64,000 nucleotides of DNA from an uncultured Sphingomonadales bacterium. GTDB lineage: Bacteria; Pseudomonadota; Alphaproteobacteria; Sphingomonadales; Sphingomonadaceae. Under the pieces are notes generated by a model. It ran no database searches. It saw only the letters and a list, made by a program, of their open reading frames with translations, and was not told where the DNA came from. Below are positions 11,874 through 30,489 of this stretch, piece by piece (the stretch's first letter is position 1; each line of letters opens with the position of its first letter). The DNA is taken from positions 84,379 through 148,378 of the forward strand of contig CAILBC010000012.1 of NCBI GenBank assembly GCA_903832325.1. The letters are read 5' to 3'. A program made the position numbers and the translations under genes.

Positions 11874-12713
11874 TCAGGCGGCGAGAAACAGCAGCGGGTC
11901 CAGCTTTCGCCCGTGCCAGTTCAGCGCCCAGTGCAAGTGGGGCCCGGTCGCGCGCCCGGTCATGCCCACTTCGCCGATCGTGTCCCCCTGGCGCAGAACG
12001 GTGCCTTCGGTCACATGGAGCGCGCGGGCGTGGAGCATCGCGCTGTTCAGCCCCATGCCATGATCGACGATCACCAGGTGGCCTTCCAGCGTGAAGGGTT
12101 CGCCGGCCGCGGCAAGCACCACCACCCCGTCGGCGGGCGCCAGAATCGCCGATCCGGCGGGCGCGGCCAGATCGAGCCCGCCGTGATAGGCCGCCGGCAC
12201 CCCGCGAAACACGCGCTGCGCGCCAAACCGCCCCGACAGCGGCCCATGCGCGGGGCGCATCATCATCTGCCGCCAGCCCTGCGCGCCGGTATCGTGCCGC
12301 CGCGCCGCGCCGATCTGCGCCAGTTCGGCACTGCGCCGCCGCGCAAATTCGGCATCGGCCATGCCCGGCGGGTGCATCGGCGTGTTGACATGTTCGATCT
12401 GCCAGGCGCGCGGGGCCACGGCGATGATCTGGCTGATCGGGCCGGCAGCAGCTTGCGCGGATAGCACCGCCTGTGGCGGCGAATCACGGTCAAACGCCAG
12501 CAGGAACACGCCATCGGGGGCATGGGCCAGATCGCGATCATCCAGCCGCAAGCCGCTGGCGCCCGGTGGCAGATGCCCGCGCAGCCAACCGCCCTGCGTG
12601 GGCTGCCCGGTCAGCGCAAAACGGTCATCCGCCGCATGTGCGGCGCGTGACCCAAGGGTGGCGAGCGCCCCGGCGGCGAACAGCAGGTGTCGCCGGGTGC
12701 AGGCCGCGATCAT
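11874..12713 (-). CDS. M23 family metallopeptidase
   Basis: HGGLD (HxxxD) and GPHLHW motifs; TRRHLL leader; ATGA overlap with the upstream gene. Confidence 0.9.
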   Translation of the reverse strand: MIAACTRRHLLFAAGALATLGSRAAHAADDRFALTGQPTQGGWLRGHLPPGASGLRLDDRDLAHAPDGVFLLAFDRDSPPQAVLSAQAAAGPISQIIAVAPRAWQIEHVNTPMHPPGMADAEFARRRSAELAQIGAARRHDTGAQGWRQMMMRPAHGPLSGRFGAQRVFRGVPAAYHGGLDLAAPAGSAILAPADGVVVLAAAGEPFTLEGHLVIVDHGMGLNSAMLHARALHVTEGTVLRQGDTIGEVGMTGRATGPHLHWALNWHGRKLDPLLFLAA

Positions 12714-12922
12714 TCCTGGCCGAGCAGGCGCCGCGTGGCGATGGCGCAGCTGGCATAGGCTTCCTGCCGTTCCGCGCTCCAGTACCGCAGCAGATCGAGC
12801 GGGATCGGCGCGCCGGTCACCGCGCAAAGCACATGATCGCCCGCCGAAAGCTGGCGAAACGTGCCGGGAAGATAATGAAGCCGCGCCAGGCGACCGACAG
12901 GGGGAGAAAGCATGGCCATCAC
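12710..12922 (-). CDS. DUF2093-like small protein
   Basis: LHY...F...GDHVLCAVTGAPIPLDLLRYWS..RQEAY pattern; typical position after xseA. Confidence 0.8.
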   Translation of the reverse strand: MMAMLSPPVGRLARLHYLPGTFRQLSAGDHVLCAVTGAPIPLDLLRYWSAERQEAYASCAIATRRLLGQE

Positions 12923-12939: not shown

Positions 12940-14421
12940 TCAAAGCAATTTCGGCTGTTGCCCGGCGCGGTCTGTCACCGGTTTTTCGGGCGCACCGCTG
13001 CGCGGTCGCGGCTTTGGCGCGCCAGAGTCCCCCGCGGGAACAACCGCCAGCGGACCATCGGCAAATTTCAGCACCAGATCACCCAGACCCGCCGCTGCGG
13101 CACGCGTCTTCACCACGCGCCCGGCCGGATCGGTCACCAGCACATAGCCGCGCTGCAGCGGCGCCTCGGGATCGAGCGAGCGACGCAGCCGATCAAGCGC
13201 ATCGACCGTGCGCCGCGCCTGGGCGATGCGTTGCAGCAACAGATCGGGCCGCAGGCGCTGTGCCGCCAGCCGGTCGCTTTCCCGGCGCAGCCGCGCCTGC
13301 AACAGCGCGGGGCGCAGCGCGCCGCCGTGGCGCGCCAGCTGCGCGGCGGCCAGATCGGTGCGATGGCCCAGCGACCGGCGCAAGCGGTCACCCAGATCAT
13401 CAAGCCGCTGCGCCTGCGCGGCGAGCAGCGCCTGCGGCTGGGGCAGGCGCCGCGCGCGCAGATCGAGCCGTTCGCGCGCCTGCGCCATCTGCCGGCCGAT
13501 TGCGCGCTGACGCCGCGCCGCAAATTCGGAAAGCGCCGTCGCCAGGTCAGCGCGCACCGGCACTGCCATTTCGGCCGCGGCCGTTGGCGTCGGCGCACGC
13601 CGGTCGGCTGCGAAATCGGCCAGCGTGGTATCGGTTTCGTGCCCCACGGCGCTGATCACCGGAATGGTCGAGCCGGCAATCGCGCGCACCACCACTTCCT
13701 CGTTGAACGCCCACAGATCCTCGATCGATCCGCCGCCCCGCGCCACGATTACCAGATCGGGCCGGGGAACCGGTCCATCGGGCGGCAGATCGGAAAAGCC
13801 GCGCACCGCCGCCGCCACTTGCGCGGCCGCACCCTGCCCCTGCACCAGCACCGGCCAGACCACGACATGGCTGGGAAAACGATCGCGCAGCCGATGCAGG
13901 ATATCGCGGATCACCGCCCCGGTGGGCGACGTCACCACGCCGATCACGCGCGGCAGATAGGGGATCGGCCGTTTGCGCGCGGCATCGAACAGCCCTTCGG
14001 CAGCCAGCCGCGCCTTGGTCTTTTCCAGCAGGGCGAGCAGGGCGCCTTCGCCGGCAATTTCCATCCGTTCGATCACGATCTGGTAATTCGACCGGCCGGG
14101 ATAAGTCGTCAGCTTGCCCGTGGCGATCACTTCGACCCCGTCGGCGGGCTGAAATCCCAGCCGCTGCACCGAACCGCGCCACATCACCCCGTCCAGCCGC
14201 GCGGCATCGTCCTTCAGGCTGCAATAGAGATGCCCCGAGGCGGCGCGTTTCACCCCCGACAGCTCGCCGCGCACGCGGACATAGCCGAAACGATCCTCCA
14301 CCGTGCGCTTGAGCAGTTGCGACAGTTCGGAAATCGACAGCGCCGGGGCGTTGTCGCCCGCGGTTTCGCTCGCTAACAGCGCGGAGGGAGCGTCATCGTC
14401 GCTCGCGAAAGGAGTACTCAT
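12940..14421 (-). CDS. xseA: Exodeoxyribonuclease VII large subunit
   Basis: [53 protein letters not shown]. Start MSTPF at 14421 with SD AGGA. Confidence 0.95.
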
Positions 14422-15712
14422 GAATATCCTGTTGCTCGGGGGCGGTGGGCGCGAACATGCGCTGGCGTGGAAACTGGCGCAAAGCCCCCGGCTCGGCAAG
14501 CTTCATGCGGTACCCGGCAATCCGGGCATTGCCGAACACGCCCTGTGCCACGCGATCGACCTGACTGATCACGACGCGGTGATCGCGCTGTGCGATGAGG
14601 AACGCATCGACCTGGTGGTGATCGGGCCCGAGGCACCGCTGGTCGACGGTCTGGCCGACACTTTGCGCGGGTCCGGCATCAGCGTGTTCGGGCCTTCGCA
14701 GGCCGCGGCACAGCTGGAAGGGTCCAAGGGCTTTACCAAGGATCTGTGCGCCCGCGCGGGCATTCCCACCGCCGCCTATCTGCGCACCGCCAGCCGCGAC
14801 GAGGCGCTGTCGGCACTGGGCCGGTTCGGCCTGCCGGTGGTGATCAAGGCCGATGGCCTGGCCGCGGGCAAAGGCGTGGTGATTGCCGAAACCACCGATG
14901 ACGCGCGCGCCGCGATTGCCGACATGTTTGGCGGCCAGTTCGGCGGCCAGTTCGGCGGGGCCGGCGCCGAAGTGGTGATCGAGGAATTCATGACCGGCGA
15001 AGAGGCCAGCTTTTTCGCGCTGACCGATGGCGCCACCATCGTCCCATTCGGTTCGGCGCAAGATCACAAGCGCGTGGGCGATGGCGATAGCGGGCCCAAC
15101 ACCGGCGGCATGGGCGCCTATAGCCCGGCGCGCGTGCTGACCCCTGATCTGGAAAGCGAAGTGCTGACCCGGATCATCGCGCCCACGGTGCAGGCGATGG
15201 CCGATGCCGGCATGGCCTATTCCGGGGTGCTTTATGCCGGGCTGATGCTGACCGCCGAGGGGCCAAGGCTGATCGAATACAATTGCCGCTTTGGCGATCC
15301 CGAATGCCAGGTGCTGATGCTGCGGCTGGAAAGCGATCTGATCGAAGTGCTGTCGGCCGTGGCCGACAGCTGGCTGGCGGCGATTGCCCCGCCGGTGTTT
15401 TCGCCGCAGCCGGCGCTGACCGTGGTGATGGCCGCAAACGGCTATCCGGGCACGCCGCAAAAGGGCGGGATGATCGCCGGGCTGGCCGATGCCGAACGCG
15501 ATGGGGCCAAAGTGTTTCATGCCGGAACGCTGCGCGATGATCAGGGCGTGCTGCGCGCCAGCGGCGGCCGCGTGCTTGCGGTATCGGTCTGCGCGCCCAG
15601 CGTGCGCGCGGCGCGCGATGCCGCCTATCGCGCGGTCGACGCGATCGATTTTCCGCAAGGGTTCTGCCGCCGCGACATCGGCTGGCGCGAAATCGCGCGC
15701 GAGGCGGAATGA
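14420..15712 (+). CDS. purD: Phosphoribosylamine--glycine ligase
   Basis: [59 protein letters not shown]; SD AAGGAG. Confidence 0.97.
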
Positions 15713-29310: not shown

Positions 29311-30489
29311 TCATGCCATCAGGCTCAAATCTTCTACACCGAACGTGATTTCGGCGTTGTCCTGCAGGCGGCGGACCAGCGCGGCACCCAGAATCGAACC
29401 CGGCGTGCCGATGCCGCCCGGCGCATCGCTTTCGCGCAAGGCAATCCCGGTTTCCGCGATCATCCGGCTGGTCGAGCCATAGCCCGGATCATAGCGGCCC
29501 TTGACGCCAAAGCGCAGCGTTCGCCCATCGGGCCATTCGCCGATGAACAGGACATCGTAGGACCCGTTGGCACGGTCTTCGGCGCTGGGGCCATCGCCCG
29601 GCTTGGGATCGTTGGGGGTGCCGATCATCGGTGTCGTGGCGATATGGTTGGCAATCGCCTGGCCCTGATCGCCGGGGCCGGTCAGGATCATCTCGTCATA
29701 GACAAAATCGCTGCCATAGGGGTGCCCGAGCAGCAGATTGGTGCGGTGCACATTCTTGGTGTTGATCACCGCCATGATGAACGGGGCGGCCCAGCTGCCG
29801 GTTTCGTCTTCATACAGCGGGGTGTTGGCCGGGGGCTGGTCGGGGCCGGTGAACCCCGGGGTCAGGCCGAACGGGCTGACCATGATCTGCGCCAGCGCGG
29901 GTTCGCGCGCGATCGCCGCCAGTGTCGCCTTGAGGCTGTAGGCGGTGCCGCCGGAGAAGCCGCCGTTCATGGTGCGCACCCGGCATTTGACGCGCGGTGC
30001 GGGGCTGCCGAAACGGGCAAGCGCTTCGGCCTGAAGCGACAGCACGCCCAGATCGAACGGGATCGAATCAAACCCCGATGAAAACGCGATGCGCGCGCCG
30101 GTGGCACGGGCCTGCGCATCAAACTGGTCGATCATCTGGCGCATCCACACCGGTTCGCCGCACAGATCGGCATAATGCGTGCCCGCTGCCACGCAGGCCT
30201 CCAGCACCGGGGTGCCATAAAGCTGATAGGGGCCGACGGTGGTGACAACGACATGCGTCGACTGCGCCATGGCGGCCAAAGATGCGGGATCATCGCTATC
30301 GGCCACGACCAGCGGGGTGTCGGCGGGCGCGCCGATCAGATCGCGCACTTGCGCCAGCTTTTCCAGGCTGCGCCCGGCCATGGCCCAGCTCAGCCCCGAT
30401 CCGCCGTGTTGGCGCGCCAGGTATTCCGCCACCAGCCGCCCGGTATAGCCGGTGGCGCCATAGACGATCAGATCGTAAGTCCGTGCCAT
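29311..30489 (-). CDS. Saccharopine dehydrogenase-like oxidoreductase
   Basis: YGATGYTG Rossmann motif, TTVGPY, YADLCGE, GFDSIPFD, DPGYGST. Confidence 0.85.
   Translation of the reverse strand: MARTYDLIVYGATGYTGRLVAEYLARQHGGSGLSWAMAGRSLEKLAQVRDLIGAPADTPLVVADSDDPASLAAMAQSTHVVVTTVGPYQLYGTPVLEACVAAGTHYADLCGEPVWMRQMIDQFDAQARATGARIAFSSGFDSIPFDLGVLSLQAEALARFGSPAPRVKCRVRTMNGGFSGGTAYSLKATLAAIAREPALAQIMVSPFGLTPGFTGPDQPPANTPLYEDETGSWAAPFIMAVINTKNVHRTNLLLGHPYGSDFVYDEMILTGPGDQGQAIANHIATTPMIGTPNDPKPGDGPSAEDRANGSYDVLFIGEWPDGRTLRFGVKGRYDPGYGSTSRMIAETGIALRESDAPGGIGTPGSILGAALVRRLQDNAEITFGVEDLSLMA

Follow-up and report, generated by a model that had tools for sequence, protein, structure and literature searches.

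In a 64,000-nucleotide (nt) stretch of DNA from an uncultured Sphingomonadales bacterium (GenBank assembly GCA_903832325.1, contig CAILBC010000012.1, positions 84,379 to 148,378 of the forward strand; hereafter the window, whose own numbering is used below), we analysed the junction between purD, encoding phosphoribosylamine--glycine ligase, and xseA, encoding the large subunit of exodeoxyribonuclease VII (ExoVII). purD and xseA form a genuine divergent overlapping pair, that is, two real genes on opposite strands whose 5′ ends overlap. They start on one palindromic CATG, and the promoter and 5′ untranslated region (5′ UTR) of purD lie inside the open reading frame (ORF) of xseA, as indicated by conserved −35 and −10 elements, by rare codons forced upon xseA and by a published transcription start site (TSS) in a congener. 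Overall, this arrangement is probably best explained as a head-to-head overlap of two housekeeping genes with fully interleaved initiation signals, conserved in one bacterial family (Sphingomonadaceae in the sense of GTDB).

One CATG for two start codons

The two genes and the signals around their starts, including the Shine-Dalgarno (SD) sequences, are located as follows:

14420–15712, plus strand: purD (phosphoribosylamine--glycine ligase), 430 aa, ATG at 14420; TIGR00877 equivalog_domain match
12940–14421, minus strand: xseA (exodeoxyribonuclease VII large subunit), 493 aa, ATG at 14421; TIGR00237 equivalog match
14419–14422, both strands: shared palindrome CATG with start codons overlapping by 2 nt, conserved across the family
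14408–14414, plus strand: purD SD AAAGGAG, 5 nt (TACTC) before the ATG, in xseA codons 3–5 (T-P-F)
14427–14430, minus strand: weak xseA SD AGGA, 5 nt (TATTC) before the ATG, in purD codons 3–4 (ATC CTG)
14350–14421, minus strand: XseA N-terminal extension, residues 1–24, overprinting the purD promoter, leader and SD

Reading both strands of the window confirms that the palindrome is common to the two start codons, as the initial annotation had claimed; the junction reads GCGAAAGGAGTACTCATGAATATCCTGTTG, and the 2-nt overlap is of phase 123:213. The identity of the two genes is supported by full-length NCBIfam matches above the curated cut-offs, namely 500 bits to TIGR00877 over residues 1–425 of PurD (cut-off 288 bits) and 428 bits to TIGR00237 over residues 29–459 of XseA (cut-off 180 bits). 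The N-terminus of PurD aligns from residue 1 in all relatives. As for XseA, comparison with the structure of the E. coli ExoVII large subunit (8TXR_A, E 6e-76) aligns residue 25 to E. coli residue 6, the window protein having about 19–20 N-terminal residues more than its E. coli counterpart.

Given this extension, the position of the xseA start has to be weighed against an annotation artefact, in which XseA would begin further inside and 14350–14421 would be ordinary intergenic DNA carrying the purD promoter. Such a reading could appeal to the tail itself, which is variable in length (a conserved G-D-N motif falls at residues 17–32), of low complexity (rich in D, P, G and S) and without a counterpart in either E. 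coli XseA or the TIGR00237 profile; moreover, one member of the family (locus L006, described below) manages without most of it. Against it, no in-frame ATG, GTG or TTG occurs in the window between 14421 and the conserved LSISELS block, and the next internal candidates would cut away conserved residues. In two relatives (L014 and L018), the ATG borne by the CATG is the sole possible xseA start. Furthermore, about 75 independent genomes have the xseA frame open and in phase, although the length of the tail changes between 17 and 32 residues, and 32 of the 33 matches of a genus-wide pattern scan have a length of 2 mod 3, i.e., the frame is kept. Since non-coding DNA would be expected to lose the phase roughly two times in three, a frame that is kept despite insertions and deletions indicates that the tail is coding. 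The artefact is thereby strongly disfavoured and, in our judgement, very improbable: the comparison of 84 loci strongly supports an xseA start at the CATG and speaks against an internal start leaving a normal intergenic gap, a possibility raised in the initial annotation. A start further upstream, at TTG 14499, was also considered and rejected, as in-frame starts in that region lack conservation and, in several relatives, a stop codon is found shortly before the CATG.

The two SD sequences differ in quality. That of purD is strong, purine-rich and conserved, with a median free energy of pairing (ΔG) with the anti-SD of −6.5 kcal/mol vs −2.6 kcal/mol for an antisense-of-coding background (p 3e-15), and its complement accounts for the recurrent P-F at residues 4–5 of XseA. 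The AGGA of xseA is present in 29 of 32 overlap loci and enriched relative to codons 2–7 of outgroup purD genes (p 0.003, uncorrected for phylogeny); however, its ΔG is only −4.1, at the 24th percentile of the background. The statement that both starts possess an SD thus needs to be qualified for xseA. Likewise, of the symmetry described initially (both SDs 5 nt from their ATG, within codons 3–4 of the partner), the spacing and the location of the xseA SD stand, and the purD SD extends over xseA codons 3–5.

The extent of the overlap was determined on 80 xseA loci fetched from named genomes, in each of which both genes were located. In 23 of the 24 named Sphingomonadales-type loci, with N-terminal tails of varying length, xseA has an in-frame ATG at exactly −2 relative to that of purD; the genera sharing the CATG include Caenibius, Novosphingobium, Erythrobacter, Sphingobium, Rhizorhapis, Sphingopyxis, Sphingomonas, Hephaestia and Allosphingosinicella. 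Among further genomes of the family, the junction CATG is found in 53 of 60, and the xseA frame is open in 52 of those 53. In the nine other families of the order (30 genomes), xseA and purD are divergent neighbours in 28 cases, with a real gap: the xseA domain lies 117–349 nt from the purD ATG, and, L175 possibly excepted, a shared CATG is not found in any of these 30 genomes. Other Alphaproteobacteria have the two genes divergent with a spacer of mostly 37–100 nt and no shared CATG; over these families and the other Alphaproteobacteria together, the spacer measures 40–200 nt. Outside Alphaproteobacteria, purD is not adjacent to xseA. Because the overlap is restricted to Sphingomonadaceae and a spacer is found elsewhere, this comparison identifies it as a derived character of that family, which arose when the xseA frame was lengthened across a short ancestral spacer. 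Conservation across the whole of Sphingomonadales, a question raised in the initial annotation, is accordingly partial: the CATG and the purD SD are kept family-wide, the CATG is lacking in the order's other families, and the SD of xseA is weak.

A few family members deviate from the common layout. The only named one to lose the overlap is L006 (an Erythrobacteraceae metagenome-assembled genome), in which an insert of about 150 bp separates the genes (purD ATG at 1335, xseA ATG at 1483). The insert contains a long inverted repeat, CTTCGACAGGCTGAG...GCTGAGCCTGTCGAAG, with the look of a miniature inverted-repeat transposable element or a repetitive extragenic palindrome; the XseA of this genome is shortened, starts with MSDMIAETRPGDNA and is missing the greater part of the tail, and the −10 'GCTA' is no longer present. 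In L095, L103 and L134 the two ATGs are 5–7 nt apart (5 nt in L134). These three loci, together with L108 and L012, display a shifted junction in a Sphingobium-like clade: in L095 and L103, a CATG occurs 9 nt upstream of the canonical purD start; in L108, the purD ATG is replaced by ATC, and another CATG, which both genes would again share, lies 9 nt upstream; and in L012 the purD ATG is changed to ATT.

A purD promoter within the xseA coding sequence

The promoter of purD is located as follows:

14351–14379, plus strand: purD sigma-70 promoter, −35 TTGTCG (14351–14356), 17-nt spacer, −10 TAACAG (14374–14379), inside xseA codons 15–24

The motif TTGTC[GCA]-N17-TA[ACG][CG]A[GA] occurs upstream of the purD ATG in 82–83 of 83 overlap loci, and the xseA strand opposite to it reads L-[L/V]-A-x4-G-D-N. 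The codon usage of this segment is exceptional. Opposite the 'TA' of the −10 element, the xseA codon is NTA in 83 of 83 loci (GTA 49, TTA 19, CTA 14, ATA 1), encoding Val, Leu or Ile, the window having TTA at codon 16, although in these taxa TTA and CTA account for 0.3% and 0.9% of the Leu codons of purD and xseA, and GTA for 2.9% of their Val codons; the corresponding values in the genome of the window itself are 0.0%, 0.3% and 2.2%. Similarly, the Asp of G-D-N is encoded by GAC in 82 of 82 loci vs a baseline of 46–60%. A residue that is free to vary combined with a fixed synonymous choice indicates that the constraint acts on the DNA and not on the protein. From these alignments, the conserved L-[L/V]-A and G-D-N motifs of XseA are identified as the translated −10 and −35 elements of the purD promoter.

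The promoter has been mapped in Novosphingobium aromaticivorans, where purD (Saro_0172) has a TSS at 172816 on the plus strand, preceded by −10 taggag and −35 ttgtcg (Myers et al. 2021, PMC8407463 Table S2). In the pattern scan of the window's genus, contig 1 of genome G407 (also locus L081) carries TTGTCG at 172780–85, TAGGAG at 172803–08 and CATGAA at 172860–65. That G407 is the N. aromaticivorans strain used for TSS mapping is supported by a second gene, since the published TSS 171354 of the M23 peptidase (−10 tacatt, −35 tgttct) matches the right bases of L081. Combining the published coordinates with the position of the CATG in G407 places the purD TSS within xseA, 46 nt inside the ORF, with a leader of 45 nt. 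By homology, the purD TSS of the window is predicted at about 14385–14387, giving a leader of about 33 nt. A leaderless purD mRNA was rejected in view of the strong SD and the mapped leader.

More than 80% of the sigma-70 promoters of N. aromaticivorans lack a T at −7 (PMC8407463), and the window promoter, which has G at −7, is of this usual non-T type. It shares with that class the TTG of the −35, the 17-bp spacer and the TAnnAG form of the −10, including T at −12 and A at −11; for purD of N. aromaticivorans, the published TSS falls 7 nt past the −10 (at the 8th base). The purD of N. aromaticivorans is on the list of that paper, which does not remark on the location of the promoter inside the xseA coding sequence. 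The initial annotation had placed each promoter and 5′ UTR inside the partner ORF. This is established for purD by the three lines of evidence described above, and on the xseA side there is a candidate, which is presented in the next section.

As a side observation, many of the spacers of the outgroup loci L020–L061 contain a conserved ATG[A/C]TACAAG (or CCTAGC), often abutting the xseA ATG. This element resembles the sphingomonad −10 region GCTA[A/C]CAG and reads TATCAT on the other strand, so that it may be a shared or bidirectional −10.

Expression of xseA and predicted overlap of the two transcripts

As there is no separate DNA upstream of xseA, the promoter of this gene has to be located within purD. 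The best candidate, and the region in which the two mRNAs are predicted to be complementary, are located as follows:

14454–14482, minus strand: candidate xseA promoter, −35 TTGCGC (14482→14477), 17-nt spacer, −10 CATGTT (14459→14454), in purD codons 12–21
14387–14446, both strands: predicted region of mRNA complementarity, about 60 bp; the purD side is anchored by published TSS sequencing (TSS-seq) and the xseA side is inferred

The candidate emerges from the synonymous sites of purD. Codon 13 is CAT in 78 of 80 loci with His at this position, against a baseline of 37–48% and a count of 11 CAT vs 10 CAC in the outgroups, and codon 21 is CAA in 78 of 82 loci with Gln, against a baseline of 17%, the residue not being Gln in the outgroups. 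The two codons occupy the first and third ranks in bias towards A or T at the third position among 75 two-fold degenerate columns, and no such bias is seen in the outgroups. These near-fixed synonymous bases form the TTG of the −35 and the A at −11 of the candidate. From this pattern we regard TTGCGC-N17-CATGTT with moderate confidence as the xseA promoter; its predicted TSS would be at about 14446, with a leader of about 25 nt containing the AGGA. In L019, L024, L026 and L050, Asp (GAT) replaces the otherwise invariant His of the GGREHAL motif at codon 13, and the 'AT' is retained.

Leaderless mRNAs are frequent in some Alphaproteobacteria. An xseA transcript starting at the A of ATG 14421 would fit the weak SD and the lack of an xseA TSS in the N. 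aromaticivorans table; in this case the AGGA would play no part, and antisense overlap would extend over the purD leader only. However, inspection of the sequence does not reveal a suitably placed −10: the minus strand reads AACAGG at −12 to −7 before the xseA ATG with GTTCGC at the −35 position, a poor combination, and GATATT, the hexamer most similar to a −10, comes to within 2 nt of the ATG. Together with the retention of the AGGA in 29 of 32 loci, this makes a leaderless xseA mRNA improbable.

Irrespective of the xseA TSS, the xseA mRNA must cover its own first codons and is hence antisense to the purD leader over its full length, SD included. Provided that the purD TSS corresponds to that of N. 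aromaticivorans, at least 14387–14421 is certainly complementary, and the 5′ ends of the purD and xseA mRNAs are almost certainly mutually antisense. The proposal that the two mRNAs overlap head-to-head across both ribosome-binding sites is thus supported for the purD side, where the TSS lies inside xseA and the leader must be covered by the xseA mRNA; on the xseA side, the overlap would follow from the candidate promoter.

These data suggest the following scenario. The xseA frame would have been extended upstream, through the ancestral spacer, up to the complement of the purD start codon, so that the purD promoter, its leader of about 33 nt and its strong SD would now be translated as a poorly constrained XseA tail of about 24 residues. 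Signals in the DNA would dictate residues of this tail, the −10 giving L-[L/V]-A, the −35 G-D-N and the SD P-F. purD would be transcribed from within xseA, as indicated by TSS-seq in the congener, and xseA from a promoter in the first purD codons, with translation from the weak AGGA site. With the candidate promoter, the TSSs at 14387 and 14446 would face each other about 60 bp apart. The likely outcome is an asymmetric, passive interference in which the housekeeping promoter of purD would dominate and the ExoVII large subunit would be kept low relative to purD, rather than a regulated switch. The CATG, once formed, would be locked in, each half being an essential start codon.

The initial annotation went further and proposed mutually exclusive expression, a purely inferential proposal. 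In such a regulatory toggle, or divergent excludon, the face-to-face promoters and the duplex of about 60 bp would make purD and xseA mutually exclusive, and collision of RNA polymerases together with RNase III cleavage would couple purine supply to the degradation of single-stranded DNA (ssDNA). The geometry is indeed similar to that of known interference systems (scbA/scbR, Ecl18kI and the divergent excludons, see below), the layout is conserved family-wide, and in E. coli, too, xseA diverges from a purine gene (guaB). However, both genes are constitutive housekeeping genes with no known reason for exclusivity, no extra conserved operator-like element was seen, and L006 and a few other lineages have separated the starts and lost neither gene. 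In addition, a search of 13800–15000 against Rfam at a permissive threshold gave no match, and hence no riboswitch or leader RNA family. The conservation of the CATG is accounted for by the need for both start codons and, for this reason, provides no argument for regulation. We therefore consider a toggle unlikely, and mutually exclusive expression is unlikely to underlie the conservation. Slightly less likely still is that the interlocked starts represent a selected, hard-wired coupling, in which firing of the purD promoter and the duplex of about 60 bp would set the synthesis of the ExoVII large subunit inversely to purine-pathway transcription. If this were true, the xseA–guaB pairing in E. 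coli would reflect a general link between purine supply and the ssDNA exonuclease. In a more modest version, the conserved N-terminal motifs of XseA would be purely the translated shadow of a promoter, without protein function.

The head-to-head housekeeping overlap, which we prefer, has to be set against several points. AT-rich codons near the 5′ ends of genes are a general phenomenon, the candidate xseA promoter draws on only two synonymous sites, and the CAT at purD codon 13 persists in L144 and L147, in which xseA is not adjacent. The codon statistics are uncorrected for shared ancestry, and the support for the use of the CATG-borne ATG by XseA is comparative. A scan of 13900–14950 for promoters and terminators of the E. 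coli consensus, which is uninformative for Alphaproteobacteria, found nothing; as regards purD, this is due to the missing T at −7. Finally, no xseA TSS is present in the N. aromaticivorans table (PMC8407463 Table S2).

Related arrangements and significance

Divergent overlaps are rare: among some 15,000 overlaps counted in 58 genomes, 331 are divergent, including 57 of less than 5 nt, and phase 123:213 is dominant (Lillo and Krakauer, 2007, PMC2174442), and E. coli has 2. The purD/xseA pair belongs to this class by its opposite-strand 5′ overlap, and its 2-nt CATG gives the dominant phase; however, the published figures are annotation counts, often suspected to be mispredictions, whereas here about 80 genomes support the starts and TSS-seq supports one promoter. 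A crude screen for CATG sharing in the 4.57-Mb genome of the window (22,187 CATG sites), made without a gene caller and hence only indicative, returned 29 candidates, among which purD/xseA was the only clean case, i.e., with both N-termini protein-like and provided with SDs. The same screen pointed to contig C22 of genome G000 (about 29693–29804, outside the window), where a lipoprotein-like ORF (LLAGCMSLAGCDRE) diverges from an argininosuccinate-lyase-like one; depending on the starts used, the two may have a head-to-head overlap of several tens of nt.

The pair is a well-documented further case of a known kind, the head-to-head overlap with face-to-face promoters, and not a new kind of system. 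The promoters pR and pL of coliphage 186 form a face-to-face pair with transcriptional interference. The scbA/scbR genes of Streptomyces coelicolor have a 5′ overlap of 53 bp with sitting-duck interference (PMC3134472), and the restriction-modification system Ecl18kI has face-to-face promoters, one TSS lying opposite the partner's initiation codon (PMC2760811). All three resemble the arrangement predicted for purD/xseA in having divergent genes, promoters pointing at each other and 5′ overlaps of about 50–60 bp; they differ in having an intergenic region, a dedicated regulator and demonstrated interference, whereas purD/xseA has no intergenic DNA and no known regulator and is known here from its sequence. 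Sixteen divergent excludons are described in E. coli (ExcludonFinder, PMC12288877), which, like the layout predicted for purD/xseA, are divergent neighbours with overlapping 5′ UTRs and a short intergenic distance. The status of excludon requires a measured transcript overlap and reciprocal expression, and the likeness of purD/xseA to them is one of geometry.

In E. coli K-12 (L089, NC_000913.3 2632604–2635602), xseA (b2509) is divergent from guaBA (b2508–b2507). As in the window, its neighbour is a gene of purine biosynthesis, here an operon; the differences are the other partner, an intergenic region of 161 bp and the lack of overlap. In two distant lineages, xseA thus has a purine gene as its head-to-head neighbour, though not the same one, which may be a coincidence. 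A literature search for xseA together with purD retrieved only unrelated convergent pairs of E. coli, and the supplements of a TSS paper on Zymomonas mobilis make no mention of purD or xseA.

Downstream of xseA, the minus strand of the window (11874–12922) contains a 70-codon ORF (12710–12922) and an ORF for an M23/LytM-type peptidase (11874–12827). As the longest forms of the two overlap, the peptidase probably has its start later than 12827. A separate TSS (171354) has been mapped for the N. aromaticivorans peptidase, Saro_0169, a short way beyond the stop codon of xseA (position 75 of L081).

Divergent overlaps of start codons are usually dismissed as annotation errors; the purD/xseA overlap is anchored by about 80 genomes and a published TSS, and as a consequence for annotation the long xseA start is to be kept. 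The pair also illustrates how a promoter inside a coding sequence shapes the protein, in that Val, Leu or Ile is allowed but the codon ends in TA, G-D-N requires GAC and P-F is the complement of an SD. Synonymous recoding or deletion of either 5′ end in sphingomonads, including engineered N. aromaticivorans, would silently harm the partner gene. For the same reason, purD/xseA is a natural and genetically tractable system in which the interference between face-to-face promoters about 60 bp apart could be measured by means of purely synonymous mutations.

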